Assembly (NCBI RefSeq): GCF_004376175.1 | Contig: NZ_SNUY01000014.1 | Location: 1 to 32,000, forward strand | Direction: 5' to 3' | Length of the DNA: 32,000 bases | Origin: Halalkalibacterium halodurans | GTDB lineage: Bacteria; Bacillota; Bacilli; Bacillales; Bacillaceae_D | Shown: in pieces, positions 2,197-32,000 of the stretch | Layout: every line of letters starts with the position of its first letter | Numbering within the stretch: the stretch's first letter is position 1 | Program-made: the position numbers and the translations under genes | The notes under the pieces: generated by a model | Seen by the model: only the letters and a program-made list of their open reading frames with translations | Databases searched by the model: none | Told to the model about the DNA's origin: nothing

Positions 2197-2328
2197 AAAA
2201 TGCCATGTAGGGTATCTCATTATGGGTGATTTTTCGACAACAATCGATTAAAATAATCGTGTATGACCCATTGGTCAAAGATTATTGAACCATTGTTCGG
2301 ATGATCGCCCTTGAGGAGGAAAAGGCTT

Positions 2329-3084
2329 ATGACTAAATATGAACTAAATGTGAAACAATTAAAAATACTGAAAACAGAACTTACACGTTTTATGATGTCT
2401 TATAAATTTGCTTTACAAGAGCTTAACACAAAGATAGATATCCTAAAGCAGGAATTTCAATACATTCATGATTACAATCCGATTGAGCATGTGTCATCAA
2501 GGGTCAAATCACCGGAGAGTATTGTTAATAAGATTCAGCGGAGAGGCAACGACTTTACTCTGGAGTCCATTCGGGAAAATGTTCGTGATATTGCAGGGAT
2601 TCGCATTACATGTTCTTTTGAATCGGATATTTATGCGCTCAGTGAACAATTAATGCAGCAACATGATATTACGGTCGTTGAAACAAAAGATTACATTAAA
2701 AACCCGAAACCAAATGGGTACCGCAGTCTCCATTTAATTTTGTCGATTCCGATTTTCATGTCAGACCGGGTGCAGGATGTCTATGTAGAAGTACAAATCC
2801 GAACGATCGCCATGGATTTCTGGGCAAGCTTAGAACATAAAATTTACTACAAATACAACAAAAATGTGCCTGAGCATTTGTTAAAAGAATTGAAGGATGC
2901 AGCAGAATCAGCTGCGCTCTTAGATCAAAAAATGGAGAAGATTCAGCATGAAATGAGTGCCTGGAAGGATCGGCAAACCGATGAGGATGAGCGCTACGAA
3001 TTAATCATTGATAATGAAACCTTTAGTCTTCCGAATGAATCGATTTTAGTTAATTTGATGCCCCCGTCTTCATTGCGTGATTAA
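2329..3084 (+). CDS. relP: Small alarmone synthetase (GTP pyrophosphokinase, RelA/SpoT-domain), RelP/YwaC-like
   Basis: ATG 2329 lies 8 nt after AGGAGGA (2314-2320); the tracked TTG 2311 overlaps the RBS. Diagnostic stretches: YKFALQELNTK, NPIEHVSSRVKSPESIVNKIQRRG, DIAGIRITC, KPNGYRSLHL, EVQIRTIAMDFWASLEHKIYYKY. From memory these are closer to B. subtilis YwaC than to YjbM. Confidence 0.85.
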   Translation: MTKYELNVKQLKILKTELTRFMMSYKFALQELNTKIDILKQEFQYIHDYNPIEHVSSRVKSPESIVNKIQRRGNDFTLESIRENVRDIAGIRITCSFESDIYALSEQLMQQHDITVVETKDYIKNPKPNGYRSLHLILSIPIFMSDRVQDVYVEVQIRTIAMDFWASLEHKIYYKYNKNVPEHLLKELKDAAESAALLDQKMEKIQHEMSAWKDRQTDEDERYELIIDNETFSLPNESILVNLMPPSSLRD

Positions 3085-7014: not shown

Positions 7015-7058
7015 GACTAGGTAAAAGGATACGTAAATTGAGATCGGGGGGAGTACCT

Positions 7059-14700: not shown

Positions 14701-17700
14701 CGATGAAAACGCTGCACCAAAAACGGAAACGGAAAAAGCGTTGGTGAACATTTGGAAGAGTGTTCTACAGGTACAGCAAGTTAGCATTAAAGATAATTTT
14801 TTTGATCTAGGTGGCGACTCAATTCTAGCTTTACAAATTGTAGCGAAAGCACAGGAAATTGGAATCCGAGTGAGTACAAAGGATGTATTTGAGTATCAGA
14901 CGATAGAAGAGTTAGCATCATCAGTCTTAACGGGGGCTTATCCAGAAGTAGCTGCCACAACGATACAAAAACACGTGGTTGGGAGCGATCGGGGTAAATC
15001 TGGGGAGAATATTCCACTTACACCAATACAATCATGGTTTTTTGAACAGCAGTTTGATCAGCATCATCACTGGAATCAATCAGTCCTATTGCAGGTAAAA
15101 GAGCGTATAAACACTCATGCGTTAACTGAAGCATTAGAAGCAGTAGTAGATCATCATGAAGCTTTAAAATATCGTTATCACCAAAAGGATGGACAATGGA
15201 TTCAACAAGTGACAGACCGTGGAAAGACGTATGCAATAGATGTCATAAAACTAAACGATAACAGCACAACCAGACAGATTCAGGTTAAAGAAGAAATATT
15301 GCGAGTACAAACGAGCTTAAATATTGAAAATGGTCCAATAATGAAAGTGCTTTACTTAGAACACACAAACACTTCGCTATGTAGGCTGTTTATAACAATC
15401 CACCACTTGGTCGTTGATAGCGTTTCATGGCGTATCCTACTTGAGGATTTACTACGACTATATAGACAAGCTTTGCAGTCCAAACAACTAGATATTCCTG
15501 AGAGGACATCGAGCTTTAAGGATTGGTCTTACACACTCAGTACATACGCTCAGCAACATATTTCACATGATGAGCAAGAATACTGGGAGAAGAAAGCGAG
15601 CATTGAATACAAGCTCCCAGTCGATTTTAGAAACGATTCAAACAACACAGAAGGTTCTCTAGACAAAATAACGTTGACCTTTACTAGAGAAGAGACTGAA
15701 TCGCTGACGAGAACGCTGCATACCACCTTAGGAGCAAAAGCGCATGAAATATTAATAGCAGCACTCATGATCTCTCTGCAGCAATGGTCAGACACACGTC
15801 AAATCAAAATAGACATCGAAGGACATGGAAGAGAAAATATTGACCCTACCATAAATTTGAGCAAAACGGTGGGCTGGTTTACAACGCTCTTTCCAGTTAC
15901 GGTCAATTTTGATCAACAGTACTCCGTGCTTCAGAAAGTACAAAGGGCCGTCCAAGAACTGCGCTCAATTCCTATGAATGGAATCGGTTACGGTCTACTC
16001 AAGTATATGAGTGGATCAATATTGAATGAGAGGCCAGCCGATGTCAGCTTTAACTACTTAGGGCATATTCATACGGAACTACACACAGATGCTCCATTTA
16101 TGATGTCATCTGAAAGTATTGAGCCTCTCAGACATGCTGAAGCTAAAAGAACATATTTGCTAGATATAGAAGGGGGGATCTTCGACGGCCAGTTAAAACT
16201 TGATTGGATGTTCAGTAAGAACGTTCATCAGAAGTCTACAATGATAAATCTGACAAATGAATTTAACCAAGTGATAAAAGAATGTGTGAGTATTGGCCAA
16301 CAGTTAAAGGGATACAAGCATCTTCCAAAGGATTTTCCTACAGCAGTACTATCACTGGAGGACTGGAAAATCGTCAATGAATTAGAGGGAAATATAGAAG
16401 ACTTATATTCGTTGTCCCCGATCCAAGAAGGCATGCTTTTCCATTCATTATTACAGCCTGGCACGGGTGTATACGTTCAGCAAATGGCATTTAAGATAAA
16501 AGGAGAGGCATTCATAGAGCGGTTTATGCAATCTTGGGAATATGTGATGAACCAACATCCGATATTAAGAACGATTTTTAGATGGGAAGGCTTTGAAAAG
16601 CCAGTACAGATCGTCAAGGCTAAAGCTAGTGTTCACGTTGATATTCTCGATTGGACAGATCGTCGATTCAGTTCAGATTTTAAAGTACAGGATGAATTGG
16701 GGAAATTGTGTAAAAAACTTAGGGAAAGCACTGTCGATATTTCCAAGGATAAACTTGTTTGCTTTACATTCGTAAAGCTAGAGTCAAATGAGTTCTTCTT
16801 TATATGGAACTATCATCACATGCTCTTAGACGGCTGGTCAATGCCAACCGTTTTGAGTCAGGTGTGTGAGGTTTATACGAAATTGTTACACCAAGAACCA
16901 TTACCAAAATTAGAGTCACCACCTTTTAGAGTATTTATAGACTGGTATTTAAAGCAGGACCACTCAACAGCAGAAACCTTTTGGAAAACGATGCTAGACG
17001 GATATCAACATACCACATACTTACCGATCAAGCAGGTTGATCCTGTTGGTGGGAGGAGGATAGAGGAGATATCAGGGCAAACACATGAAGAAATGACATT
17101 ACAATTGTCTAGTGCAAGTTTTCGTCGTCTCAAACAATTAGCGACTAAAAAGAGAGTTACTTTGTATAGTTTAATTCAAACAGCTTGGAGCATCCTACTT
17201 CATTATGCTAGCAAAAAGGAAGATCTTATATTCGGCTCTGTATACTCAGGAAGACCTGCATCCATTAAAGGTATAGAGGATATGGTTGGTATGTTTATTA
17301 ACACGTTACCAATACGTGTAAAAATTGAAGCGGACCAAACACTTAACAACCTACTACAAAATGCTCATGCACTACAAATGAAGGTAAAGGAGTATGAACA
17401 CACCCCACTTGTAGACATCAAGAAATGGAGCGGAATCCAAACAAGAGGGGAGTTGTTTGACACGTGTGTGATCTATGCAAATTTCCCTAACGTCATGTCT
17501 ACTGAGGGTACACAACAGATCATCGAAGGGGTAGAAGTCTCAGATATCACCGCTCTTGAACAAACGAATTATCCACTGACCTTGTCAGTGGTAACAAATG
17601 AAACCATGTCATTAGATGTGAACTTTGATACGTACAAAATTGATAAAGGCGATGTAGAGCACTACCTATTTATACTCGAACATATCCTGAACAACTTTGA

Positions 17701-17842
17701 GAACAGGATAGAGTCAACTTTGACTGACATAAGTAAGGAGCTAGATAAGCTTTTCCAGTCCAGAAGTGGAGTGATCAGGTCGAAGCAGAGAGAGAAAAAT
17801 CGAAGCAGGCTGTTAAACGTCACAAGAAGGAAAAAAAGGTAA
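11721..17842 (+). CDS. Non-ribosomal peptide synthetase 2: C-A-T-E-C (frameshifted at its 5' end as sequenced)
   Basis: The uninterrupted ATG-initiated ORF starts at 11798, inside the C1 motif (SPIQEG-MLFH). Homology continues upstream in the same frame to ~11738 without a start codon. ATG 11721 abuts the NRPS1 stop but is one frame off across the G6 run at 11732-11737.
- C: HHLLLDGWS (nt 12179).
- A: LAYIMYTSGSTGLPKG, NFYGPTE, NGKVDRK.
- T: FFDLGGDSI.
- E: PLTPIQSWFF, HHLVVDSVSW (nt 15401).
- Second C: SLSPIQEGMLFH, HHMLLDGWS (nt 16814).
The protein then ends with a basic tail. Confidence 0.9.
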
Positions 17843-17882: not shown

Positions 17883-18914
17883 GTGTTGAATAAATCACTA
17901 AATATTAAAAATAGAAAAAGAAGGCAAGTAAAAATTGGACAAGAATTAGTACAAAAGCAATTACTTAATGAAGAGCAGCAGCTTCCACTTGTTATTAAAC
18001 CAATGTCAGCAGATGTAAATATCCTTGAGTGGGTGGGAAAAAATAGAACAGCTCTCGAAAAAGATTTAGCTAAGCACGGTGGGATATTGTTTAGAGGTTT
18101 TAATATAGATGAGGTCGATCGTTTCTACGATTTTATTCATCAGTACTCTGGGAATCTACTAGAATACAAAGATAGTGCGACGCCAAGAAGTAATGTGAAT
18201 AAACAGATTTATACATCAACTGACTATTCAGCAGAGCATTGGATCGAGCTGCATAATGAAAGTGCCTACAGTGATCAATGGCCAATGAAGATCTTCTTTA
18301 ACTGTCAGATACCTGCACAAGAAGGTGGTGAAACACCTATCTTAGATAGCAGGAAAGTCTACGAAAAAATGGATAAGCGTGTACGTAAAAAGTTTGAAGA
18401 AAAGCAAGTGATGTATGTGAGGAACTTCGGTCTAGGAGTAGGTCAGAAATGGCAAGATGTATTCCAAACCGAAGACAAAGATCAAGTAGAGGAGATTTGT
18501 GAGAAAAGTGAGATGCAATGTGAATGGGAATCAGATGAACACTTAAGAATCAAGCAAATTAGACCTGCTGTATCCCAACATCCACTAACAAAAGAATATG
18601 TCTGGTTTAATCAGATTACCGCATTTAATATCACAACTTTAAACGAAGACGTAAGACAGGAGCTTTTGAGAGAGTATGGAGAGATGAATGTGCCTAAAAA
18701 CACATTTTATGGAGATGGAACTGCAATCGAAGCAGAAGTTTTAGAAGAGATTAGAAGAGTATATAACGAGGAAATGATCGTATTCCCTTGGGAAAAGGGT
18801 GATCTTATCGTATTAGACAATATGCTAGTTGCCCATGGGAGGACATCTTATAAGGGTAAGCGAAAAGTGCTCGTTGGAATGACTGAACCGATGAAATGGT
18901 CACAGATTAAATAA
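17883..18914 (+). CDS. Stand-alone Fe(II)/2-oxoglutarate dioxygenase, TauD/TfdA superfamily, SyrP-like amino-acyl beta-hydroxylase
   Basis: Motifs typical of SyrP-like NRPS hydroxylases: GGILFRGF, YTSTDYS, LHNESAY (H-x-E), GGETPILD, VWFNQI, VLDNMLVAHGR (distal His). RBS GAGAGGTGA lies at 17871-17879. The start is GTG 17883 or TTG 17886. Confidence 0.85.
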   Translation: MLNKSLNIKNRKRRQVKIGQELVQKQLLNEEQQLPLVIKPMSADVNILEWVGKNRTALEKDLAKHGGILFRGFNIDEVDRFYDFIHQYSGNLLEYKDSATPRSNVNKQIYTSTDYSAEHWIELHNESAYSDQWPMKIFFNCQIPAQEGGETPILDSRKVYEKMDKRVRKKFEEKQVMYVRNFGLGVGQKWQDVFQTEDKDQVEEICEKSEMQCEWESDEHLRIKQIRPAVSQHPLTKEYVWFNQITAFNITTLNEDVRQELLREYGEMNVPKNTFYGDGTAIEAEVLEEIRRVYNEEMIVFPWEKGDLIVLDNMLVAHGRTSYKGKRKVLVGMTEPMKWSQIK

Positions 18915-18925
18915 GGGGGATGAAC

Positions 18926-21900
18926 ATGAGTACGATGGAAGGATACCCATTATCACCTCAACAAAAAAAAGTATGGGAATTACAGAATAAGATAGATAAG
19001 CCATTGTATCATCTCGCATCTTTTCAACTGTCTGGGGAGTTAGACTTGTTTAAATTACGAGAAAGCATGAAGCAAGTACTAAATCGCCACGAAATACTTC
19101 GTACAAGCTTTAATAAAATTGAAGGGATGCACTATCCCGTACAAAGGATTCATGATGAAACGGACGTACGTCTTTCAAGTCGGAGTATTGAGGAAGTACA
19201 GCAGGAAAGGAATGCGAAGGAGATATTAAGTACGTATACAGATGAAACAATCAATCAAATTCTTGATATAGAGAATGGCAGTCCTGTTTACGTAGAGGTG
19301 ATCAAACAAAGTGAAGAAACGCATAAAATTGTATTGTGCTGCTCTGCTTTGAACGCTGATGCTACAACCTTACAAAGCGTCTTGCAGGAAACAATACATT
19401 TATATAGTAAGCAAGAATCACGTTCAGAAGATGATATTGTTCAGTATGTAGACTATTCAGATTGGCAAGAAGAGCTATTTGAAACGGAGAAAACAATTGA
19501 GGATAATAAGCAAAACGTTCAACAGAAGGCGTTACCTTATGAAGCGCAAGACTTGGAATGGCCTAGCGGTAAAAATCGTGCTTCTATCCAGGTTTCCGTC
19601 GACATTTACTCAAAAATGCAAGCGTTAGCGCATGAATGGAATGTTCCTTTGCTTACACTTTTACTCACCAGTTGGAGCATGTACTTATCAAAACTGGTAA
19701 ATGGTGATGTCAATCTAGGAATAACAATAGATGGAAGAAGAAATTATGAAGAATTAAAGAATGGAATGGGTCCGTACGCAAAATTAATGAAGCTTATTAC
19801 ACCAGAAATAGAGGAGAAAGCAACGTTTAAGGAGTATGTTGCGATCATCCAAGACCGTTTCGTACAGTTGGCAGATGCTGTTGAGTACTTGGATCCAACT
19901 TCAACTCTAAAAGAGAAGAGGATTCTACCATATCAGATCCAGTACGTGAAAGGTGTAAACTATGAGCATGGGAACTTGAGCTGCTTTTCTGAAGAAATAT
20001 ACTCGGGGGAGGATACGTATAAGTTAAAGCTCAGCATTTTAGATAGCGAGTCAGTTATGAACATCGGTATTCAATATGATGATGCCATATATAAAGCAGA
20101 AGATATTCAAACGGTCATTAGGCATTTTCTACACTTCTTAGAGGAGTGTCTAGACGATTGGAACAGACCATTTTCTGAGCTAAAGTATCAATCGAAAGAA
20201 GAAGAGAAGGAGATTCTATCAAGTACGAGCACTTCAAGTGCTACATACCCTTCGGAGGACATCCTAAGTCATACAAAAAACATTTTGCAACACCTTAAAG
20301 AGAGTATAACTCTTCATGCTCATAAAGTGGCAATTGAGGAAGGCTCACTTACATTATCGTACAAGGATATTGATGAAAAATCGAATCAAATGGCCCAGTT
20401 TATTAAATCTTTTAATATTATGCCTGAAGAGCGTATTGCGATGTGCCTACCGAGAAGTGTGAATGCAATCATAAGTATGCTAGCAATACTCAAGTCAGGA
20501 GCTAGCTTTGTACCTATTGATCCTAAGTGGCCAGTGGAAAGAATTCAATATGTCCTTCAAGATAGTGGGGCTAAGTTGATAGTTGTACAAAATCGAGAAT
20601 CAATGGATCCAGCATTTTCTCCAGGGGTACCACTGATAGATATAGAGCATGATGAAGAGAAGATCAATCAGTATGAAACGGGACAAGAGCTGCCATTAAA
20701 CAATATTGAATCTAATCAACTTGCTTATATGATGTACACGTCAGGATCTACTGGCTTACCTAAAGGGGTGGGAATCGAACACGGTGGGCTTTTGAATTAC
20801 ATATTATGGTTTAAACGCCAATTTTCGGAGGATTTGAACATGCCGTTTATCTCTGAGTTCGGCTTTGATGCTTTTCTAAAGCAAGTGTTTTGCCCCCTAA
20901 CGTTAGGGAATAAAATCACGATTTTCACAGAAGAGGAAGTACTAGATACAAATAAGCTAGTAGCAAAGTTAATCAATACGAATATGAACGCACTTAACTG
21001 TGTACCGTCCTTATGGGAAGTGGTTCTACAAGAAATCCAGCAAAAAGAAGACTTGTTAAGGAATCTGCGTCGTCAACTAAGAACGTTACTTGTAGGAGGG
21101 GAACAAGTTTCAGTTTCATTTATTCAGAGAACGAAGGACATGCTACCTGAAGTAGACATCGTAAATCTTTATGGACCGACTGAAGCAACATCAAATGCAA
21201 CATTTGCAAGGTTAACGCATCCTTACCTCATTACCATCGGCCAACCAATCGCCAACATAGAAGTGGCTGTCTTAAATGAAAAGCTAGAACAAGTTGCAGT
21301 CGATGAAATTGGTGAACTGTATATTGGTGGAACAGGTATTGCTAGAGGTTATATCAACAAGGCGAAGCTTACGGCAACTCAGTTCATCCCGCATCCATAC
21401 TCAGATGTGCCAGGTATGCGACTGTATAAGACAGGTGATCTTGTTCGTATTCGCCCGAATAGACAAATAGAGTTTATAGGGCGGCGGGATTCACAAATGA
21501 AGATCAATGGTAAGCGTGTAGATGCGAGAGAGATCGAATACACGTATGCACAACATCCACTTTTAGAAAGCGTAGTTGTGTTACCTATTGAAGAAGAAAA
21601 GACCCTCGTAGCGTTTTATGTGCAACAGGGTACAGCACTGACACAGGAAGAATTGAGAACATACGGGCAAAAACGATTACCTCAATATATGATTCCTCAT
21701 TCATTTGTCAGAGTGGATATGATGCCACTAAATAATAGTGGAAAAACGGATCACCGAACGTTACAAAGCATCTATCGTGAAGCATCAAGAAAGGAGTATA
21801 TAGCGCCGCGTAACAAGACAGAACAAGCAGTATCAGAAATATGGAGAGAGGTGCTGAAAGTTGAGAGAGTAGGGATGAGAGATAATTTCTTTGAACTGGG

Positions 21901-22099
21901 AGGTCATTCTCTAAATGCTACCCAATTGATTTCAAGATTGAGAAGGATTTATAGGGTAGATATCCCGATCAGTCTAATATTCGAGACGGAGACGGTTGAA
22001 CGATTATGTGAAGAGATAGAGATGACTCTTTCCCAAAAACACCATATTGAAGAGATATCAGCTGCATATCTTAAAGCTAAGGCTTTGGCAATAAAATAA
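18926..22099 (+). CDS. Non-ribosomal peptide synthetase 3: catalytically His-less C-like (interface-type) domain-A-T
   Basis: ATG 18926 lies 6 nt after AAGGGGGA; ATG 18920 is also possible. The C fold is recognisable (YPLSPQQKKVW, RHEILRTSF, YVDYSDWQ). At the HHxxxDG position it reads SALNADA (nt 19343-19363).
- A: LAYMMYTSGSTGLPKG, NLYGPTE, YKTGDLV, SGKTDHR.
- T: FFELGGHSL. Confidence 0.9.
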   Translation: MSTMEGYPLSPQQKKVWELQNKIDKPLYHLASFQLSGELDLFKLRESMKQVLNRHEILRTSFNKIEGMHYPVQRIHDETDVRLSSRSIEEVQQERNAKEILSTYTDETINQILDIENGSPVYVEVIKQSEETHKIVLCCSALNADATTLQSVLQETIHLYSKQESRSEDDIVQYVDYSDWQEELFETEKTIEDNKQNVQQKALPYEAQDLEWPSGKNRASIQVSVDIYSKMQALAHEWNVPLLTLLLTSWSMYLSKLVNGDVNLGITIDGRRNYEELKNGMGPYAKLMKLITPEIEEKATFKEYVAIIQDRFVQLADAVEYLDPTSTLKEKRILPYQIQYVKGVNYEHGNLSCFSEEIYSGEDTYKLKLSILDSESVMNIGIQYDDAIYKAEDIQTVIRHFLHFLEECLDDWNRPFSELKYQSKEEEKEILSSTSTSSATYPSEDILSHTKNILQHLKESITLHAHKVAIEEGSLTLSYKDIDEKSNQMAQFIKSFNIMPEERIAMCLPRSVNAIISMLAILKSGASFVPIDPKWPVERIQYVLQDSGAKLIVVQNRESMDPAFSPGVPLIDIEHDEEKINQYETGQELPLNNIESNQLAYMMYTSGSTGLPKGVGIEHGGLLNYILWFKRQFSEDLNMPFISEFGFDAFLKQVFCPLTLGNKITIFTEEEVLDTNKLVAKLINTNMNALNCVPSLWEVVLQEIQQKEDLLRNLRRQLRTLLVGGEQVSVSFIQRTKDMLPEVDIVNLYGPTEATSNATFARLTHPYLITIGQPIANIEVAVLNEKLEQVAVDEIGELYIGGTGIARGYINKAKLTATQFIPHPYSDVPGMRLYKTGDLVRIRPNRQIEFIGRRDSQMKINGKRVDAREIEYTYAQHPLLESVVVLPIEEEKTLVAFYVQQGTALTQEELRTYGQKRLPQYMIPHSFVRVDMMPLNNSGKTDHRTLQSIYREASRKEYIAPRNKTEQAVSEIWREVLKVERVGMRDNFFELGGHSLNATQLISRLRRIYRVDIPISLIFETETVERLCEEIEMTLSQKHHIEEISAAYLKAKALAIK

Positions 22100-22123
22100 G
22101 GTGATATAAGTAGGTGAATGTAT

Positions 22124-25100
22124 ATGAGCTTTTCAAAAGAAATGGAAATTCTTGATCAGCTATTAAAAGATGAAGGTGAAAGTGATCGTATCCCAAGAAG
22201 AACTAATCGAGCAGAATACCCTTTATCATTTGCCCAAGAGCGGCTTTGGTTTATCCAGCAGTTAGATCATCACAGTGCAGCGTACAATATCCCCTTAGCG
22301 ATTAGATTGGCTGGTGCTCTTGATACAGAAAAATTGGAACGCTGTTTTAATAAGGTCATTGAAAGGCACGAGGTGCTACGTGCAACATTTAAGAAAGAAA
22401 ATGGGAAAGCGAATCAGCATATTATTTCAGCCCAGTATTATCCTATTTCTTTACACGATTTAAGTACACTCTCTTATGCTGAAAGAGAGAATGAGGCCAG
22501 AAGTGTTGCTCAGAAATTAGCCTGTAAACCGTTTGACTTGAGTGAAGGGCCTTTATTCCGTATTCAATTAATAAAATTACAAGCGAATGAACATATCCTC
22601 GTTCTGATCATGCATCATATCGTATCAGATGGTTGGTCTACAGGAGTGTTGATTAATGAACTGACTAAGCTGTATCATGCGAATGAAGAAGAATGGAATG
22701 AGATACTCCCAGACCTATCTATCACATATTCTGACTATGCAGCTTGGCAGAGAAAAAAATATGAAAACGGTGATTATCAGAAGCAACTGGAATACTGGAA
22801 AAAGATAATAGGAACAGAATCGACGAAGCTTGCACTTCCTTATGATTTCCCTAAAGCGAATGCGGCTAGTCAATATGGTGATGTTGAGTGCTTCACAGTT
22901 CCGTTGTCGGTGACAAAAGCGGTTAAGCACACGAGCCAAAAGCTAGGAGTATCAGCTTTTACAATCTTACTTTCCGCATACTATCTATTCTTATTTCGGT
23001 ACTGCAACCAAAAAGAAATAATAGTGGGAACACCTGTGGCGAATCGTAACCAGTTTGAAACTGAGTCACTTATTGGCTGTATTGCGAACACGATTCCATT
23101 AAAAATGAATGTTGAAAGCGATTCTACTGTGAAGGATTTCATTGCAGAAGTAAGTCGTACAACATTAGAAGCTTATCAGAATCAGGATGTTCCTTTCGAG
23201 AAAATAGTAGATGAGCTTAAAGCTGAACGTACACTATATCAATCACCAATATTTGAAACGATGTTTACATTTCAAAATCAACATCGAAACTTAATCACTT
23301 TAGATCGGAGCATAGAGACACAACCGTACCACTTACAGTTAGATGCAAGCAAGTTTGATTTATCCTTATCAATCATGGAAGTGGATGGAGAATATGACTG
23401 TGTATTTGAATATCGAACAGAGCTTTTCAGGCAAGATTCAATTAAACGGATGGCCAGTAACTTTATTTGTATATTAGAAGGAATGGTAGATGAGCCATTA
23501 AATACGATTCATACGCTTCAGTATATGGATCAAGAAGAGCAGAAACTAATGAGTGTAGCATCGTCCTTAGTCTATAAAAAGGGAGATATGATTTTTCAGC
23601 GCTTTGAGCATCAGGTGCTACAGAACCCTGATGTGATCGCAGTTGATGACGGTAAGCAAAGGCTATCGTATGCGGAATTAAACAATAAATCCAACAAGTT
23701 AGCTAGATATTTGCGGAGAAATGGTGTAAATACAGAAGCGAAAGTACTCATTCAATTGGACCGTTCAATAGATTTAATCATTGCAATTTTAGGTGTATTA
23801 AAAGCAGGTGGGACCTACATACCCGTTGACCCAGAGCAACCTGCTGAAAGAACAAAGTATATCATCAACGACGCTAAATGCGAGTATATGCTTACAAAAT
23901 CAAAATATATGAAAGATAACCAGCTGGAATTGGATCAACGAATCCTGTATATAGACCTGCATGATCAGAGGTGGTTAAAAGAGGAAGAAAAGAATTTAGC
24001 ATCTGTAGGAATGTCACCTGATCAAGTCGCTTATATGATCTACACATCAGGTTCAACCGGGAAGCCAAAAGGAGTGTGTAATACACATTACAATGTCATC
24101 CGCTTGTTTGATAGCGCTGAACAACATTTTGATTTTGGCCGTGATGATGTCTGGACCCTCTTTCACTCTATAGCGTTTGATTTCTCGGTGTGGGAGATGT
24201 GGGGGGCCCTACTTAATGGTGGAAAACTCATGATTGTACCGCATGAGCTACGTAGAAATCCTGAAGCATTTTACAAATTCATGAGTGAAAATCGTGTTAC
24301 TGTTTTAAATCAGACACCTTCTGCATTTAAAGTAATTGTTCGGTTGGCGAAGCACACTCAGCATCCTCTGTTTCTTAAGTACGTTATTTTCGGAGGAGAA
24401 GCATTAGATTATCAAGACTTGACAGCATGGTTTGAATATCATGGCGAAAAAACAAAAATGATTAACATGTATGGCATCACAGAGACAACGGTTCATGTCA
24501 CCTATAGGGAGGTGAAGAAGTCAGATGTAACTGGAAATCAAGGTAGCTTCATAGGACAACCTTTAAATGATCTTACCATTTATATATTGAATGAGGACTT
24601 ACTTCCAACACCAATTGGCGTTCCTGGAGAAATTTATGTGAGTGGAGCAGGCTTAGCGAGGGGATATTTTAATCGTCCCTCCCTTACTGCGGAGCGCTAT
24701 ATCCCCAACCCATTCAAATCCGGTGGACAAAGGCTATACCGTACAGGGGATATTGCCAAGCGAACGGTGAACGGAGACATAGAATATCTAGGTAGATCGG
24801 ACGACCAAGTAAAGGTTAAAGGGCACAGGATTGAATTAGGGGAAATAAAAGCCACTATTGCAGAGGATCACAGGGTAGAAGATTGTGTGGTTTTAGTGGG
24901 ATCGAACAGTAGGAATGAAAAGGAGCTTGCAGCTTTTATTACGTTTAAGCAAAAGGAAGAAACTGAAGAACAGGTACGAGAATTACGCAATCATTTAATT
25001 GATAAGTTGCCGAGATACATGTATCCAGCTCATATTATAGCTGTTGACACTATACCGATGAATGCAAATGGAAAGGTTAACAAAGAGCAATTATTGACTC

Positions 25101-28100
25101 TACGTACTGAAAGCGCTGCTTCTCAAGGAGGTAGGCCACAAACAAAGACTGAAAAAGAGTTGGTTGCCGTCTGGGAAAAAGTATTAGGAAGAAATGGTAT
25201 AGGGATACATGATAATTATTTCTCACTCGGTGGAGACTCGATAAGGAGTGTTCAAGTCATATCTGAGCTACAAGAAATGGGATATGAACTTGAAGTAAAA
25301 GACATGTTCCTTAACCAAACGGTTAAAGAATTGGCAGAATACTTGGAACAGAGCGAAAGTCGTACAACAACGTATAGGCGTACAAAGCCATTTGAACTCA
25401 TTTCAGATAAAGATCGGTCAGCGTTAAGCGAGGCAATAGAAGATGCGTATCCACTTACAAAGCTACAAGAAGGGATGCTTTTCCACATGGAACAGTTTCC
25501 TAATCAACCGATTTATCACAACATCGATAGTGTGCGACTGGAGGGTGCATTAAATATTGACCTATTTAATGAAGCGGTAGCAAGCGTTGTGGAAAACAAT
25601 GTAATGTTACGTACCTCCTTTGACATGTATTCATATTCCGTACCATTACAACTTGTACACAAAAAAGCAAAGCTACCTGTTGGTTATCAAGACATTAGAC
25701 ATTTATCCGAACAAGAGCAGGAGCGAGTCATTGATGAGTATGTTGAACAAGAAAAAATGAATAAGTTCGATTTAAATAAACCGAGTCTGTTAAGGTTCTA
25801 TATTCACCAGCGAACGGCCGAGACATTTCAATTCACGCTTACAGAGTGTCATCTAATATTTGATGGGTGGAGCTTAACATCAACGCTTAGTGAAATCTTT
25901 GACCTATACTTTGATCTGCTTGAAAATAAACGTCAAATGACGGAAAGCAAGGAACTGAATGTACGGTTTAGTGATTTCATACGCTTAGAACAGGAATCGA
26001 TAAATAGTGAGGAACAGCAAGAGTTTTGGAAGAGCTACCTTGACGATTGCCAACTACTAAAATTTAATCATTTGACCCCTGAAACAAAGCATGAATCAGT
26101 GGAAATCCATAGAAGAATCGTTTCATTACCACAGACTGTTAAGAAAAAGTTAAAGCAAATAGCTGCAGATCATAGCGTGACGTTAAAAAGTATGGTATTA
26201 GCCGCTCATATTAAAGCTTTGCAGGTTATTTCAGGGCAATCCGATGTCTTGACTGGGTTGGTTTCAAACGGAAGGATGGAAGTGAAGGATGGGGAGAAAG
26301 TAAAGGGACTATTTCTAAACACACTTCCATTAAGACAGAGAGTGCAACAGGGTACGTGGATCGACTTTATTCATCAAACATTCAAGATGGAACAACAGAT
26401 CCTGCCGTACAGGAGATACCCGTTGCCCGAGATACAGAAAACTGTAGGACAATCTCCATTATTTGAAACAGCGTTTAACTACGTTTACTTTCATTCAATG
26501 GAGCACTTGTTTCAATCGAAAAAGCTTAAGTTTATTGACTTTAATAAAAACTCAGCAAATGATACCCATTTTTCGTTAATGGCTAACTTTGCTGTACATC
26601 CACCACATTACGATATTCAGTTAACTTTAGCTTTTGATCGGAATCGTTTTTCAGAAGAAAAGATGGACTCTGTTGCTGATATCTATCGTAATATCCTAAT
26701 ACAAATCGCTTCTGATCCTTTGATAAATCATAACAACCGTTCCTATCTAGCTGACCAGGAATATAAAAAGGCAGTGTACAAATGGAATGAAACTGATAGA
26801 GGATATGCTGAAAGTGGTTTGACGATTCAACAATTGATCGCCAAGCAAGTTAAACGGACACCAGAACATCCTGCGGTAGTGTTTCAATCGGAGAAGATGA
26901 CTTATGCAGAGCTAAATCAAAAAGCTGATCAGGTTGCTCAGTTTTTAAAGGCACAAGGAATCTCAAATAACGCTTTTGTTGGTGTATATCTTGAACGATC
27001 CTTAGAGATGATGGTTGCATTATTAGGGATTCTTAAAGCAGGATGTGCTTATGTACCATTGGACACATCCTATCCAGAAGAACGAATCAAGTATATGATA
27101 GCTGATGCTGGTGTTGAGTGTATCCTTACAGTGAAACATCAACTAAACAATATTTTGAGCATGAGTAATGATACACCGCAGGACTGTTATGACATACTCG
27201 AAATTCTTAGTGCCCAAGAAAAGCAACCAAGTTCTGATTTTGAGTATCATAGGGGATCAACAGAGGATATTGCTTATATGATTTATACGTCTGGATCAAC
27301 AGGAAATCCAAAAGGGGTAATGATTCCACACAAAGGGATTGTAAACCGTCTTCTGTGGATGCAAGAGGAGTATCAGTTAAACAAGGAGGATCGAGTGCTT
27401 CAAAAAACACCTTTAAGCTTCGATGTTTCTGTATGGGAGTTATTTTGGCCACTGATTACAGGTGCAAGCTTAGTCATCGCTAAGCCTGAAGGTCATAAAG
27501 ATAGCTACTATTTAGCAAAGCTAATTAAAGAAGAACAGATCACCACTTTACATTTTGTACCTACAATGCTGCAAGAATTTCTGAATGAAAAAGAATCAGA
27601 GAACTGTACAAGCTTAAAAAGGGTGATTTGTAGTGGTGAGGCTCTTGCCCCAGAACTGAAAGATCGCTTCTATAAAGCATTAAATTCACACCTGCATAAT
27701 TTATACGGCCCTACAGAGGCATCGGTAGATGTGAGTTATTACGCCTGTAAACAAGAGGATTCTTCAGTTTGGATCGGAAAACCGATTGCGAATATACAGC
27801 TCTATGTTCTAAACAAGGATTTGCAACCTGTAGGGGTAGATAGAATAGGAGAGCTGTTTATCAGCGGCATAGGATTAGCGACAGGATATGCGAACAAGCC
27901 TAGTTTAACTGCAGAGAAATTTATACCGAATCCTTTTTCAAAAAAACAAGGCATGAGAATGTATAGCACAGGGGACCTAGTACGCTTATTACCAGACGGA
28001 AATATCGAATACATTGGTAGAAAAGACAGCCAAGTAAAAATCCGTGGAGTAAGGATTGAGTTAAAGGAAATCGAGTCTGCAATGAGAAGCCATCATCATA

Positions 28101-29614
28101 TTAAAGAGGCTGTTGTCGTATTCAATAAGACAGCTAATAGAAACAAAGACTTGCTCGTTGCATATGTTGTTCCAGTGGAACGTGCTGAGTTATCTATAAC
28201 GAAAGTAAAGAAGTATATTTCAACACGTCTCTCTGACTATATGCAGCCAGACCGAGTCATATTTTTGGACAAAATGCCTGTATCACCAAATGGGAAAATT
28301 GACCGAAAAAGTTTGCCAGACCCGTCGGAGGATAGACCAGATCTAGATGCACAGTATGTAGCACCAGAAAAACCACTTGAAAAAGAACTGGTGGAAGTAT
28401 ATAAAAAAGTTCTGAATCTTGAGCGTGTTGGAATACTCGATAACTTCTTTGAATTAGGAGGGAACTCCTTAACAGCCGTATTTTTGATCAATCATATAGA
28501 AAAGTTAACTGGACAGAAGTACCCAATTAATTTGATCTTTGAAAATCCACAAATAAAGGACTTAGCACATGAAATCATGCATCGCAACACATGGGCGGGA
28601 GGAATAGAAAACCTTAGAAGAAAGGATGGAAATCAGGAGAGTAGGGGGATGCTTGTAGATATTCAACCTAATGGAGAGAGACAAGCGTTATTCTTTTCAG
28701 CTCCACTAGGAGGAATCTTACCTTCTACTGTTGTTGCTGGGATAATAGATTTCTCCCATGCGCTTGGGAAAAAGCAACCGTTTTTCGGCATCCAAACCCC
28801 ACCTTTATCTGGTGAACTATCTGCAAAATTGAATCTGGATCAACCGTCTTTCATTGAACAAATGAATGTCGTCCGAGCCTGGGAACCAGATCAGGAGATA
28901 CTCCCAAAGCTAGCGAAAGAAAGTATTAGTATGATCAGGGAAAAGCAACCAAGTGGTCCATACGTCTTAGGTGGGTTTTGTACAGGCTCACATTTAACAC
29001 TTGAGATTGCTAGTCAGCTAGAAAAGGAAGGTGAGCATGTTAAAGAAATTATAATGATTGACTCGTTTGCTCCAGGGTATACCGTCAACGGGGGCGAACA
29101 AGAAACACCTAAAGAGTACATTTTTGACGAGAACGACCCAGTATATATTGGTCAAATGTCACAATCCTTAGCTTGGTTCACTTGTAGGGAAATTGGCATA
29201 AATAAAGTGAGCCAATCCGTTCAAGAGGTTGCAGAAAGGATTAAATGTTTACCAGGCATGGATCAACGTTGGGAGTATATTACGGATGTATTAATTGCTA
29301 GTGAAGTGGTACCGATAGATACTACGTCGTCCGAGACGTACAGATTATACGTATTGTATAAGCTTAATACTGAAGCAACAAGAGTTGCGTTGAATGATTA
29401 CCATCCTAAAAAAGTGAATAGTGATATAACATTATTCATTGCTAAGAACGGATTTGAGGCCGAACTGCATCAGGATCATACGTTGGGCTGGTCGCAGGTA
29501 ACCTTCGGAAATGTGAATGTTAACTATGTATCGGGAGACCATTTAACAGTCTTAACAGTTCCAAACGTGTATGAGATTACGGATATCCTGGACAAACGTC
29601 TACGGTCTAAATAA
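22124..29614 (+). CDS. Non-ribosomal peptide synthetase 4: C-A(Thr-like)-T-C-A(Ser-like)-T-TE
   Basis: ATG 22124 lies 6 nt after TAGGTGA; the tracked ATG 22118 abuts the RBS.
- C1: YPLSFAQERLWF, HHIVSDGWS (nt 22613).
- A1: VAYMIYTSGSTGKPKG. Code read by eye is DFWNIGMVHK, the Thr code.
- T1: GGDSI.
- C2: YPLTKLQEGMLFH, CHLIFDGWS (nt 25847).
- A2: IAYMIYTSGSTGNPKG. Code read by eye is DVWHISLVDK, against the Ser code DVWHLSLIDK.
- T2: GGNSL.
- TE: GPYVLGGFCTGS, IMIDSFAP, SGDHLTV. Confidence 0.95.
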   Translation: MSFSKEMEILDQLLKDEGESDRIPRRTNRAEYPLSFAQERLWFIQQLDHHSAAYNIPLAIRLAGALDTEKLERCFNKVIERHEVLRATFKKENGKANQHIISAQYYPISLHDLSTLSYAERENEARSVAQKLACKPFDLSEGPLFRIQLIKLQANEHILVLIMHHIVSDGWSTGVLINELTKLYHANEEEWNEILPDLSITYSDYAAWQRKKYENGDYQKQLEYWKKIIGTESTKLALPYDFPKANAASQYGDVECFTVPLSVTKAVKHTSQKLGVSAFTILLSAYYLFLFRYCNQKEIIVGTPVANRNQFETESLIGCIANTIPLKMNVESDSTVKDFIAEVSRTTLEAYQNQDVPFEKIVDELKAERTLYQSPIFETMFTFQNQHRNLITLDRSIETQPYHLQLDASKFDLSLSIMEVDGEYDCVFEYRTELFRQDSIKRMASNFICILEGMVDEPLNTIHTLQYMDQEEQKLMSVASSLVYKKGDMIFQRFEHQVLQNPDVIAVDDGKQRLSYAELNNKSNKLARYLRRNGVNTEAKVLIQLDRSIDLIIAILGVLKAGGTYIPVDPEQPAERTKYIINDAKCEYMLTKSKYMKDNQLELDQRILYIDLHDQRWLKEEEKNLASVGMSPDQVAYMIYTSGSTGKPKGVCNTHYNVIRLFDSAEQHFDFGRDDVWTLFHSIAFDFSVWEMWGALLNGGKLMIVPHELRRNPEAFYKFMSENRVTVLNQTPSAFKVIVRLAKHTQHPLFLKYVIFGGEALDYQDLTAWFEYHGEKTKMINMYGITETTVHVTYREVKKSDVTGNQGSFIGQPLNDLTIYILNEDLLPTPIGVPGEIYVSGAGLARGYFNRPSLTAERYIPNPFKSGGQRLYRTGDIAKRTVNGDIEYLGRSDDQVKVKGHRIELGEIKATIAEDHRVEDCVVLVGSNSRNEKELAAFITFKQKEETEEQVRELRNHLIDKLPRYMYPAHIIAVDTIPMNANGKVNKEQLLTLRTESAASQGGRPQTKTEKELVAVWEKVLGRNGIGIHDNYFSLGGDSIRSVQVISELQEMGYELEVKDMFLNQTVKELAEYLEQSESRTTTYRRTKPFELISDKDRSALSEAIEDAYPLTKLQEGMLFHMEQFPNQPIYHNIDSVRLEGALNIDLFNEAVASVVENNVMLRTSFDMYSYSVPLQLVHKKAKLPVGYQDIRHLSEQEQERVIDEYVEQEKMNKFDLNKPSLLRFYIHQRTAETFQFTLTECHLIFDGWSLTSTLSEIFDLYFDLLENKRQMTESKELNVRFSDFIRLEQESINSEEQQEFWKSYLDDCQLLKFNHLTPETKHESVEIHRRIVSLPQTVKKKLKQIAADHSVTLKSMVLAAHIKALQVISGQSDVLTGLVSNGRMEVKDGEKVKGLFLNTLPLRQRVQQGTWIDFIHQTFKMEQQILPYRRYPLPEIQKTVGQSPLFETAFNYVYFHSMEHLFQSKKLKFIDFNKNSANDTHFSLMANFAVHPPHYDIQLTLAFDRNRFSEEKMDSVADIYRNILIQIASDPLINHNNRSYLADQEYKKAVYKWNETDRGYAESGLTIQQLIAKQVKRTPEHPAVVFQSEKMTYAELNQKADQVAQFLKAQGISNNAFVGVYLERSLEMMVALLGILKAGCAYVPLDTSYPEERIKYMIADAGVECILTVKHQLNNILSMSNDTPQDCYDILEILSAQEKQPSSDFEYHRGSTEDIAYMIYTSGSTGNPKGVMIPHKGIVNRLLWMQEEYQLNKEDRVLQKTPLSFDVSVWELFWPLITGASLVIAKPEGHKDSYYLAKLIKEEQITTLHFVPTMLQEFLNEKESENCTSLKRVICSGEALAPELKDRFYKALNSHLHNLYGPTEASVDVSYYACKQEDSSVWIGKPIANIQLYVLNKDLQPVGVDRIGELFISGIGLATGYANKPSLTAEKFIPNPFSKKQGMRMYSTGDLVRLLPDGNIEYIGRKDSQVKIRGVRIELKEIESAMRSHHHIKEAVVVFNKTANRNKDLLVAYVVPVERAELSITKVKKYISTRLSDYMQPDRVIFLDKMPVSPNGKIDRKSLPDPSEDRPDLDAQYVAPEKPLEKELVEVYKKVLNLERVGILDNFFELGGNSLTAVFLINHIEKLTGQKYPINLIFENPQIKDLAHEIMHRNTWAGGIENLRRKDGNQESRGMLVDIQPNGERQALFFSAPLGGILPSTVVAGIIDFSHALGKKQPFFGIQTPPLSGELSAKLNLDQPSFIEQMNVVRAWEPDQEILPKLAKESISMIREKQPSGPYVLGGFCTGSHLTLEIASQLEKEGEHVKEIIMIDSFAPGYTVNGGEQETPKEYIFDENDPVYIGQMSQSLAWFTCREIGINKVSQSVQEVAERIKCLPGMDQRWEYITDVLIASEVVPIDTTSSETYRLYVLYKLNTEATRVALNDYHPKKVNSDITLFIAKNGFEAELHQDHTLGWSQVTFGNVNVNYVSGDHLTVLTVPNVYEITDILDKRLRSK

Positions 29615-29630: not shown

Positions 29631-31274
29631 ATGAGTATATACAAATATCTGTTTTCCATTTCCAAAAAGAATGTGCTTTATGCTCTGATTGCTGGTCTCA
29701 TTAGTGGGGCCAGCAGTACAGGTGTCATCGCTGTCATAAACCACACCATAAACAATCAGCAAAGTACGGGTTACCATATTGTATTAGCGTTTATCGCCTT
29801 GTGCTTAACGATGCTTTTGAGCAGTTTAGTGTCTGGATATTTATTGATTAAGCTTGCACAAGGGTCAATCATCAATTTACGTATTAACCTGAGTAAGCGC
29901 ATTCTATCAACCCCACTTAGGAAGGTAGAACAGAATGGCTCTCACAGGCTGTTAGCATCGTTAACTGACGATGTAATGGCAATCGCGAATGCTATTACGG
30001 TTAGTCCAATGCTGATCATTAATCTTTTCATTGTTCTGGGATGTCTAATCTACATGGGATGGCTATCCATATCAGTGCTCTTCATTGGACTAACATTTAT
30101 GACGATAGCATTTTTTAGCTACCAAATGCTGATGAAGATAGCTAACAAATATCTAGCAAGTGCGAGAGAGGAACACGACTCACTTTTTAGACATTTTAAA
30201 TCACTTACAAGCGGAACAAAAGAATTAAAAATGAGCAAACAGCGTCGAATAGATTTCTTCGATAAGCAGTTAACACCAACAATAAGGGGTGTTTATAAGG
30301 ACACTGTAAAAGGCATGACAATATATACTGCAGCTGGAAACTGGGGACAAATGCTATTCCTGTTTTTTATTGCGCTGGTCATCTTCTTTATTCCCCAGCT
30401 TAACCTAGTCAGTACAGAGATATTAACTGGATATACGCTATCGATTTTATATATGATCACACCTTTGGTTACAATCCTTAATGTCTTTCCAAACTTCGGG
30501 CGTGCCAATGTGGCTCTTAGGAAGATTGAAAAGCTCGAACTCGCTACAGAGGATGAAGAGTTGATGAGCAATCGAGAACAGTTACCGAGTAGTTTTAACG
30601 AGATCAGACTAATAGATTTAACCCACACGTATTATCGAGAAGAGGAAGATCATAACTTTACACTCGGACCAATCAATTTGACCTTCAAAGAAAATGAGCT
30701 CATCTTCCTCGTAGGTGGTAACGGGAGTGGAAAAACAACACTAGCCAAACTGATTACCGGGTTATATGAGCCTGAAGGGGGGAGGATAGAGGTCAATGGT
30801 CAGCCTATCACAGATAAGCACATTGATCATTACCGCCAGCTCTTTTCTACAGTGTTCTCAGATTTTTATCTTTTCGAGCAATTTATTGGTATCTCAGAAG
30901 ACAAAGTAAAAGAGGAAGCGGAAGAGTACCTGCGGCTTCTTCAACTAAATCATAAGGTAAAGGTTGAAGAAGATCGCTTATCAACAACAGATCTGTCAGG
31001 AGGACAAAGGAAGCGACTTGCGTTGTTAGTTTCATATCTGGAGGATAGACCATTTTATGTATTTGATGAATGGGCGGCAGATCAGGATCCGCTGTTCAAA
31101 GACTTCTTTTATACAAAACTTCTACCAGCTTTGAAAGGTAAGGGCAAGACGGTGCTTGTAATCTCACATGATGATAAATATTTCAACGTGGCGGACAGAA
31201 TCATTAAGATAGACTACGGGCAAGTGATAAAAGATGAGCCTATTGAAGCACTATCACAGCAAGCAGCTGAGTAA
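29631..31274 (+). CDS. Cyclic-peptide export ABC transporter (fused TMD-NBD, SyrD/PvdE/YojI family)
   Basis: N-terminal multi-TM region. Walker A is GGNGSGKTT, signature LSGGQRKRLAL, Walker B region FYVFDEWAADQDP (the EWAADQDP stretch is characteristic of this family). RBS AAGAAGGGGGAG. Confidence 0.9.
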   Translation: MSIYKYLFSISKKNVLYALIAGLISGASSTGVIAVINHTINNQQSTGYHIVLAFIALCLTMLLSSLVSGYLLIKLAQGSIINLRINLSKRILSTPLRKVEQNGSHRLLASLTDDVMAIANAITVSPMLIINLFIVLGCLIYMGWLSISVLFIGLTFMTIAFFSYQMLMKIANKYLASAREEHDSLFRHFKSLTSGTKELKMSKQRRIDFFDKQLTPTIRGVYKDTVKGMTIYTAAGNWGQMLFLFFIALVIFFIPQLNLVSTEILTGYTLSILYMITPLVTILNVFPNFGRANVALRKIEKLELATEDEELMSNREQLPSSFNEIRLIDLTHTYYREEEDHNFTLGPINLTFKENELIFLVGGNGSGKTTLAKLITGLYEPEGGRIEVNGQPITDKHIDHYRQLFSTVFSDFYLFEQFIGISEDKVKEEAEEYLRLLQLNHKVKVEEDRLSTTDLSGGQRKRLALLVSYLEDRPFYVFDEWAADQDPLFKDFFYTKLLPALKGKGKTVLVISHDDKYFNVADRIIKIDYGQVIKDEPIEALSQQAAE

Positions 31275-31353: not shown

Positions 31354-31563
31354 ATGGAGAACACAAACATCCAATATAAAGTTGTATACAATCACGAAGA
31401 ACAGTACTCAATTTGGCCAGCTCATAGAGAGCTGCCGAACGGATGGTTTGAGGAGGGTACGATTGGAGAGAAGGAAGAATGTCTTCAACGGATCGAGGAA
31501 GTATGGACAGATATGAGACCACTAAGTCTAAGAAAGCAACTATCTAAGGCTGAAGGCAATTAA
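31354..31563 (+). CDS. MbtH-like protein
   Basis: 69 aa. YKVVYNHEEQYSIWPAHRELPNGW...CLQRIEEVWTDMRPLSLR carries the three conserved Trp and the SxWP, GW and WTDMRP motifs. RBS GAAAGGGGGTGA. Confidence 0.9.
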   Translation: MENTNIQYKVVYNHEEQYSIWPAHRELPNGWFEEGTIGEKEECLQRIEEVWTDMRPLSLRKQLSKAEGN

Positions 31564-31614: not shown

Positions 31615-32000
31615 GTGAGCAACACTAGATATGAAGAAAAGTTACCTGATCTCTATTCTCTTAATAGAGATCAGGCTCAGCAGCATATTCTGAAATACCT
31701 AGAGCAGCTATTAATCGAACATACTGAATATGATGCGCAGCTCGAGATCGAAAATGTGAAGATCATGGAATGGGTACAGGACTCATTAACAGCAATTAAG
31801 CTAAAGGCACACATAGAAAAAGATATAGGAATAGAGATAGACGTATCTGAACTGTTTGAAGAGCAATCACTATTACAGTTAACAGCAATGATGATTGACC
31901 TCGTAGATGAACTGAGGCATTCATCCAGCTCTTCTATTGATTCGGGTGAGGAAAAGGATTTCTTCACTGAAGAGCTACAAAAGATGAGTGACGAAGAGAT
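31615..32000 (+). CDS. Partial CDS (3' end outside window) beginning with an acyl/peptidyl carrier domain
   Basis: Not in the ORF track because it has no stop. It is open from GTG 31615 to the window end. MEWVQDSLTAIKLKAHIEKDIGIEIDVSELFEEQSLLQLTAMMIDLV is carrier-protein-like, with the DSL Ser codon at 31783-31785. A Ser-rich/acidic linker (HSSSSSIDSGEEKDFFTEELQKMSDEE) follows. The start codon is uncertain and the RBS is weak (AAGGGG 12 nt upstream). Confidence 0.6.
   Translation, partial: MSNTRYEEKLPDLYSLNRDQAQQHILKYLEQLLIEHTEYDAQLEIENVKIMEWVQDSLTAIKLKAHIEKDIGIEIDVSELFEEQSLLQLTAMMIDLVDELRHSSSSSIDSGEEKDFFTEELQKMSDEE

Follow-up and report, generated by a model that had tools for sequence, protein, structure and literature searches.

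A cysteine-nucleophile type I thioesterase at the end of an orphan nonribosomal peptide assembly line in Halalkalibacterium halodurans

The terminal thioesterase and its catalytic residues

The window analyzed here, positions 1 to 32,000 of contig NZ_SNUY01000014.1 of Halalkalibacterium halodurans (assembly GCF_004376175.1), has a guanine-plus-cytosine content of ~39% and carries a nonribosomal peptide synthetase (NRPS) cluster on the forward strand. The open reading frame (ORF) at 22118-29614 encodes a synthetase of 2498 amino acids with the architecture C-A-T-C-A-T-TE, composed of condensation (C), adenylation (A) and carrier (T) domains and a terminal thioesterase (TE). An initial annotation, made from the letters alone, had noted a cysteine in place of serine at the nucleophile elbow of this TE and had proposed that the product is released as a beta-lactone or a similarly small, strained ring. 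The peptide quoted there, QPSGPYVLGGFCTGSHLTLEIASQLEKEGEHVKEIIMIDSFAP, is present in the translation of the ORF. The domain was correctly recognized, but its given start at 28650 is one base off frame, in-frame codons starting at 28649 and 28652. The TE and its functional positions are the following.

28652-29611, forward strand: type I thioesterase at the C-terminal end of the protein, spanning ORF residues about 2179-2498 (PF00975 and AlphaFold2 model)
28700-28714, forward strand: APLGG motif of the oxyanion-hole region, followed by the clade-specific insertion ILPST (clade alignment)
28979-28981, forward strand: TGT codon of Cys2288, the nucleophile in GGFCTGS, in frame and on the catalytic Ser/Cys of solved TEs
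29060-29062, forward strand: GAC codon of Asp2315 in IIMIDSF, the triad acid at the canonical 'position I', aligned with IVMIDT of AB3403
29474-29476, forward strand: GAT codon of Asp2453, another conserved acid, located in the loop that follows beta7 (clade alignment)
29540-29542, forward strand: CAT codon of His2475 in SGDHLTV, the triad histidine, invariant across the clade alignment

The Pfam family PF00975 (Thioesterase) matches residues 2261-2489 with an E-value of 1.6e-18 and 68.2 bits against a cut-off of 26.4. In phmmer searches of all PDB chains, Cys2288 aligned to the catalytic serine of the skyllamycin TE (7crn, GWSLGS; GWALGS in the S-to-A mutant 7dxo) and to that of the human fatty acid synthase (FAS) TE (GYSYGA). 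The top PDB match was the TE of Acinetobacter AB3403 (4zxh), with E=2.6e-13 for the single sequence and 5.8e-47 for a profile of the TE clade described below. AB3403 has GGWCFGG at the elbow, IVMIDT opposite IIMIDS and GDHSSIM opposite GDHLTVL. An AlphaFold2 model computed from a 20-sequence alignment (pLDDT 88.1, pTM 0.88) adopts the fold of alpha/beta-hydrolases and shows the expected strand-elbow-helix around Cys2288. When this model was compared with the PDB by Foldseek, AB3403 was again the top match (2.2e-17) and the TEs of FAS, Vlm2, skyllamycin, Pks13 and NocB ranked next; of 601 matches at E<=0.001, the 50 best listed are all thioesterases, either TE domains or stand-alone enzymes. 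ObiF and SulM, the two cysteine TEs with which the window TE had first been compared, were found neither among the 60 best clade-profile matches (E up to 0.005) nor among the 50 best Foldseek matches.

The triad columns of AB3403, the FAS TE and the skyllamycin TE are taken by Cys2288, Asp2315 and His2475. Pairwise and clade-profile alignments agree on the elbow position and on the retained aspartate and histidine, all of which had been read correctly from the sequence, and we confirmed that the region encodes a type I NRPS thioesterase with a cysteine nucleophile. Asp2315 lies at +27 from Cys2288 and is kept in >=90% of the clade alignment. The column of Asp2453, which lies near the site of the catalytic aspartate of ObiF and SulM, holds aspartate or glutamate in 17 of 20 clade members.

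Cysteine at the elbow is shared by the closest relatives

Querying genome contigs with the TE alone gave 60 pattern matches, none of which was confirmed, and a word-indexed protein search returned no match. An exhaustive HMMER scan of 1.84 billion representatives retrieved 13,303 TE relatives, the best of them 31-37% identical. Cysteine occupies the nucleophile column in 26 of the 30 best-scoring TE-bearing proteins, mostly as GGFC[ST]G; over the best 150 proteins the column holds 68 cysteines versus 99 serines. Within the clade itself, serine has returned at the elbow of a few proteins (P0009, P0014 and P0018). Several relatives (P0001, P0017, P0026, P0029 and P0078) carry tandem TE pairs with cysteine at both elbows. 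Named members of the clade belong to Roseiflexaceae, Herpetosiphonaceae and Archangium, the remainder being metagenomic, and the two members viewed in their genomic context (P0004 and P0006) end long NRPS or NRPS-polyketide synthase lines.

The clade is marked by the signature APLGGxLPS, with a five-residue insertion that is missing in AB3403, and by GPYxxGGFC, AWFxxRD, RW and GDHGT. The window TE retains 27 of the 29 invariant or near-invariant positions, the other two being conservative changes, and independent intact members retain 22-29. In a neighbor-joining tree with long branches, the window TE and the TE remnants of orthologous synthetases (see below) fall outside the Ser-type group and beside the branches of the Cys clade. 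Since 26 of the 30 nearest proteins share the cysteine and 27 of 29 invariant positions are retained, Cys2288 is, judging from its relatives, a selected lineage trait and no sequence error.

In ObiF and SulM, as the initial annotation had noted, the ring is formed from a beta-functionalized C-terminal residue. The last A domains of the Cys relatives of the window TE show no such pattern: their codes specify Gly (at least five; P0007, P0013, P0019, P0038 and others), an Asn-like residue (at least four; P0004, P0008, P0015 and P0139), Tyr or a Lys-like residue, and a Ser code is only occasional (P0006 and P0118). Because most of these lines end in residues other than Ser, the cysteine is not tied to a beta-functionalized last residue.

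The assembly line that feeds the thioesterase

The remaining features of the cluster within the window are listed below.

7038-11720, forward strand: module 1 protein with an N-terminal C domain in starter position, an A domain (DSVLIAEVW, His-like), a T domain and an epimerization (E) domain
11798-17842, forward strand: module 2 protein, C-A-T-E with A code DPENAGFTT, plus a C domain serving module 3
17883-18914, forward strand: stand-alone TauD/clavaminate-synthase-like dioxygenase, presumed beta-hydroxylase of residue 3 (PF02668, 1.8e-43; At3g21360-like, 3.8e-39)
18920-22099, forward strand: module 3 protein with a C-like domain that has no HHxxxDG (interface type), an A domain (DAKNLGLSN) and a T domain
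22118-25366, forward strand: module 4 (C-A-T), with an A domain predicted to select Thr (code DFWNIGMVH(K))
25367-26794, forward strand: C domain of the dehydrating C_modAA type, placed between the Thr module and the Ser module, motif CHLIFDG
26834-28315, forward strand: last A domain, code DVWHISLVD(K), predicted Ser
28457-28480, forward strand: GGNSLTAV, site of phosphopantetheine attachment in the last carrier domain, from which the TE is supplied
29631-31274, forward strand: ABC exporter of the cluster
31354-31563, forward strand: MbtH-like protein (PF03621, 8.6e-19)
about 31700-32000, forward strand: start of an ORF resembling an acyl carrier protein (ACP; PP-binding, 1.4e-06), downstream of the ABC exporter

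The specificity code of module 1, DSVLIAEVW, is one residue off the His code DSALIAEVWK (PMC12283262), and because this module begins with a C domain, N-acylation of the chain is likely. The N-terminal C domain and the downstream ACP together suggest lipoinitiation; head-to-tail closure of the peptide would therefore be blocked. For module 2, the code DPENAGFTT has Glu239, which is typical of cationic substrates, and matched no assigned code.

The code of module 3, DAKNLGLSN, has Lys239, as in Glu codes. Its C-like domain (18920 to about 20200) reads LCCSALNAD in place of HHxxxDG, the motif being absent from all orthologs as well, and the C domain proper for this module forms the C-terminal end of the module 2 protein. 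Together with the stand-alone TauD protein encoded just before it, the C-like domain plausibly represents the beta-hydroxylase/'interface domain' arrangement of siderophore NRPSs, an assignment based on the missing HHxxxDG, the gene order and the description in antiSMASH 8. A beta-hydroxy residue at this position, which the initial annotation had considered, is thus plausible.

For the last two residues, Thr and Ser had been read from the sequence. The Ser prediction agrees with the codes DVWH[LM]SLVDK listed for this amino acid (PMC12283262). The code of module 4 is indeed that of Thr, but the product probably contains dehydrobutyrine (Dhb) at this penultimate position, since the C domain that follows the Thr module is of the C_modAA type. 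This domain matched McyA2-C (8jbr) with 1.6e-108 and AmbE C2 (7r9x) with 2.9e-51, versus 6e-40 or weaker for ordinary C domains. McyA2-C and AmbE-C2 are founding or characterized members of the dehydrating C_modAA clade, to which AlbB-C2/C3 also belong; the window domain resembles the first two in sequence and follows a Thr module. In the window domain and in all its orthologs the first histidine of HHxxxDG is replaced by cysteine (CHLIFDG). In NCBIfam, neither the TE and the TauD protein nor the interface-like and C_modAA domains matched an informative family.

The junction between the first two synthetase genes is irregular. The first ORF stops with TAA at 11718-11720, immediately followed by an ATG at 11721 and a run of six G at 11733-11738; as assembled, the second ORF can start only at the ATG at 11798, and one extra G in the run would restore MKSMGGIYIDIRNIENIYTCSPIQEGMLFH, a normal N-terminus of the next C domain. 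Either the homopolymer was sequenced wrongly or the frameshift at this junction is real.

Orthologous clusters with a lost or degraded thioesterase and another last adenylation code

A search with the last module placed the closest synthetases in Bacillaceae and related taxa. Three orthologous loci were viewed in context.

L081, a metagenomic contig: positions 10001-17368
L082, Metabacillus arenae: positions 10001-16447
L083, Bacillus infantis: positions 10001-17284

All three share the gene order NRPS, TauD, interface-A-T protein, bimodular synthetase, ABC exporter and MbtH, and all three have an aminotransferase, an aldehyde dehydrogenase, a PadR regulator and an RND transporter farther along. 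In L081 and L082, genes for a ketoreductase (KR), an ACP, two ketosynthases (KS) and a dehydratase (DH) come next after MbtH, in the order KR-ACP-KS-KS-DH; this set is not found in L083. The dehydratase is FabA/ApeI-like, and the genes from KR to aldehyde dehydrogenase that continue the MbtH/ACP region in the sister clusters suggest a dedicated acyl starter, possibly of polyene type. In L081, the only locus compared in this way (tblastn), the proteins are 41-66% identical to those of the window (TauD 60.5%, ABC exporter 66%), and the clusters are clearly orthologous. A literature search found no characterized product for this biosynthetic gene cluster family.

The initial annotation had recommended checking whether homologous clusters conserve the cysteine. 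They do not: the whole TE is lost or degraded there. The terminal TE is missing in P0160 (Metabacillus arenae) and P0161 (B. cereus), and P0159, P0162, P0166 and P0167 carry remnants of the same clade which keep the insertion and the lid. Their elbows read Val, Ser, Ser or Gly, and the triad acid is replaced by Asn, Glu or Asn or kept as Asp; the GDH histidine and the oxyanion GG are gone, and 12-14 of the 29 invariant positions are retained. Besides those of B. cereus, Salibacterium proteins are also found among the relatives without TE or triad.

The same six nearest orthologous synthetases share the last A code DYF[YF][ML]SQVE, versus the Ser code in the window. The last A domain is roughly 45-70% identical to its orthologs over most of its length, like the rest of the protein. 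We considered wholesale replacement of this domain and rejected it, as its backbone is no more divergent than the remainder of the protein and the differences are confined to the specificity residues. The homologous clusters thus appear to have given up the TE together with Ser specificity, and among the clusters compared an intact Cys TE and a Ser end occur only in the window. This covariation of TE loss with re-coding of the last A domain is a more unusual observation than the cysteine itself.

Genes flanking the cluster

A small alarmone synthetase is encoded at 2311-3084 on the forward strand. It is <=69% identical to any protein in 185,579 species-representative genomes, with the best matches in Fredinandcohnia, Heyndrickxia and Neobacillus. 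The NRPS cluster lies beside the alarmone synthetase in none of the 80 loci retrieved, mostly from Bacillales, so the NRPS cluster is not conserved at this locus. Between a TetR gene and the first NRPS gene, three broken ORFs are found at 5505-6356 on the reverse strand. Pfam gave no match for them; one is 59% identical to unannotated stretches on 28 plasmids, mostly of Enterococcus and other Bacillota, which occur in two copies per listed plasmid record and, in the one record inspected, lie between resistance genes. The region is probably an insertion-sequence remnant.

A release model and its alternatives

With moderate confidence, we read the window TE as a type I NRPS thioesterase that is intact and catalytically competent, uses Cys2288 in a canonical, EntF/AB3403-like triad, is probably a cyclase and is not of the ObiF/SulM type. 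The predicted chain has five residues and is probably N-acylated: a D-His-like residue, a D-configured cationic residue, a beta-hydroxylated acidic residue, Dhb and Ser. Transthioesterification would load it from the last carrier domain onto Cys2288, and an internal nucleophile would most likely resolve the acyl-S-enzyme so formed. An acyl-thioester is activated far more strongly than an oxoester toward aminolysis, the two being similar toward hydrolysis (PMC11536411); we favor intramolecular resolution because a thioester is the more activated of the two toward an amine or a poor nucleophile. Attack by the side-chain amine of residue 2 would give a 14- to 16-membered macrolactam, comparable in size to the bulbiferamide ring, and attack by the beta-hydroxyl of residue 3 a 10-membered lactone. 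With an N-acyl cap in place, the other candidates are the hydroxyl of Ser5, yielding a beta-lactone, and water. We would rank cyclization by an amine or a hindered nucleophile first, plain hydrolysis second and beta-lactone formation third. Cyclization is placed first by analogy with MacB/PmxB and BulbE, which cyclize their substrates and are the only Cys TEs with a canonical triad to have been assayed.

Several observations weigh against this reading. The orthologous clusters work without a functional TE, and release in this gene cluster family may not need one. The substrate of module 2 is ambiguous, and an Arg at this position would not provide a good amine nucleophile. Asp2453 provides a second conserved acid, and the pairing of His2475 with Asp2315 is assigned from the alignment. 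MacB-TE is reported to group with Ser-type cyclases and not with the AB3403-like clade (PMC13288461). The apparent one-base frameshift at the junction of the first two ORFs raises the question whether the assembly line, or the sequence itself, is intact. Finally, no product is known for any member of the clade of the window TE, and its release chemistry is argued by analogy.

The alternative that survives best is hydrolysis to a linear (lipo)pentapeptide acid, with the cysteine an inherited clade trait that has no special chemical role. It would account for the interchange of Cys and Ser inside the clade (P0009, P0014 and P0018), for the similar reactivity of thioester and oxoester toward water, and for the AB3403-like single-module Gly lines, which have no obvious internal nucleophile. 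However, in both canonical-triad Cys TEs assayed the wild type cyclizes and only the Ser variant hydrolyzes, and retention of cysteine in 26 of 30 proteins across a deep clade suggests selection for thioester chemistry. On balance, we consider hydrolysis unlikely.

A second alternative holds that the TE is dispensable or vestigial in this gene cluster family, that the product leaves by another route and that the window copy has merely not yet decayed. The six nearest orthologous synthetases, all of them in syntenic clusters, are TE-less or carry a triad-less remnant, as this explanation would predict. The window TE, however, keeps 27 of 29 invariant residues against 12-14 in the remnants and therefore seems to be under purifying selection. 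Moreover, the last A domain of the window carries a Ser code in place of DYF[YF][ML]SQVE, so the chain end is chemically different and may need a TE. We regard a vestigial TE as distinctly improbable.

No more credence is due to the proposal that in the Cys TE the C-terminal Ser attacks its own thioester, as in ObiF and SulM, so that an N-acyl-peptidyl serine beta-lactone or some other tiny, strained ring is released. The cysteine nucleophile is present, a canonical Ser code in the last A domain supplies the beta-hydroxyl on the enzyme-attached residue, and cysteine is indispensable for difficult ring closures in ObiF, SulM, BulbE and MacB. While the Ser end and the cysteine fit, the position of the aspartate and the kinship of the TE do not. 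The catalytic aspartate of ObiF and SulM is relocated, whereas the window TE keeps the canonical Asp2315, conserved in >=90% of its clade; the Gln-Cys-Asn motif of SulM is replaced by Phe-Cys-Thr; and both enzymes are outside the 60 best profile and 50 best fold matches, where AB3403 comes first. In addition, the Cys clade members that end in Gly (at least five), an Asn-like residue (at least four) or Tyr are unable to form beta-lactones. Slightly more doubtful still is the idea that a canonical-triad Cys TE makes a strained ring from the C-terminal Ser of a Dhb-Ser lipopeptide, which would constitute a second, independently evolved route to peptide beta-lactones; if true, the sister clusters would have abandoned their TE upon the change of the last residue.

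That the Cys codon is a missequenced or misassembled Ser codon is very improbable, for although TGT is one substitution from the codons considered (TCT or AGT) and the assembly may hold a homopolymer error at 11733-11738, that suspected error is an indel and not a substitution, and the nearest relatives share GGFC[ST]G, a clade consensus onto which a chance error would hardly fall.

Comparison with characterized cysteine thioesterases

Cys-type TEs account for ~2% of known TEs (PMC13288461), in keeping with the rarity stated at the outset. Only a few of them have been studied, and as the cysteine was needed for a difficult closure in all cases assayed, any further example may serve as a biocatalyst and hint at an unusual product. 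Cys-type type I TEs are a known kind of enzyme; as the polymyxin-type synthetases of Paenibacillus already use one, the cysteine of the window TE is noteworthy and not startling. Its large, mostly Cys clade has no characterized member, its cluster is an orphan of Bacillaceae, and a reaction assigned to this clade would annotate hundreds of assembly lines. The loss of the TE and the re-coding of the last A domain in the sister clusters offer a natural comparison for what a Cys TE is needed for.

The closest match, AB3403 (ABBFA_003403 of Acinetobacter baumannii, PDB 4ZXH/4ZXI), shares the cysteine in a GxCxG elbow, the WF-x-RD and GDH motifs and the organization of the lid, and its TE combines the Cys nucleophile with an aspartate at the canonical position I (PMC11298585). 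Identity is only about 22-28%, and AB3403 has neither the ILPST insertion after the oxyanion GG nor an insertion of ~20 residues that precedes the core helix. Its line consists of a single Gly-type module, and its host is Gram-negative. As AB3403 is known from its structure only, with no assigned product or release chemistry, it is uninformative on function.

ObiF and SulM, named at first as the characterized cases, are genuine Cys TEs and share with the window TE the nucleophile and a beta-functionalized residue on the acyl-enzyme, which in the window is the predicted Ser. In both, however, the catalytic aspartate is relocated to the loop after the next strand, the RifR-like 'position II' (PMC6668435, PMC11298585), an arrangement not seen in the window TE, where Asp2315 holds the canonical site. 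ObiF has Gly1173 at the canonical acid site, and Asp or Leu placed there lowered its activity (PMC6668435). SulM has a Gln-Cys-Asn motif (PMC11298585), different from the Phe-Cys-Thr of the window, as well as a cationic pocket; both enzymes act on short chains, SulM on a tripeptide. A cysteine at the elbow alone is thus no predictor of a beta-lactone, and the position of the catalytic aspartate must be checked.

The list of characterized cases was also incomplete, since BulbE-TE and MacB/PmxB-TE are Cys TEs that make macrolactams. Both were compared with the window TE by published triad spacing and function. The BulbE-TE of bulbiferamide biosynthesis in Microbulbifer has the triad Cys961/Asp988/His1097 and closes a 15-atom macrolactam via an indole nitrogen (PMC11536411). 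Its aspartate is at the canonical site, with the same +27 Cys-Asp spacing as in the window TE, but its nucleophile, a poor one, is the indole nitrogen of Trp in a ureidopeptide, and no Trp is predicted in the window product. The MacB-TE of macolacin biosynthesis, with the triad Cys89/Asp116/His218, is 90.6% identical to the polymyxin PmxB-TE of Paenibacillus (PMC13288461) and cyclizes a lipodecapeptide through the amine of the diaminobutyrate Dab4, hydrolysis being undetectable (PMC13288461). The C-to-S variants of BulbE-TE and MacB-TE are acylated but only hydrolyze (PMC11536411, PMC13288461). With its Cys/Asp(+27)/His triad at the end of a Firmicute lipopeptide NRPS, MacB/PmxB-TE is the best functional analog for a canonical-triad Cys TE such as that of the window.

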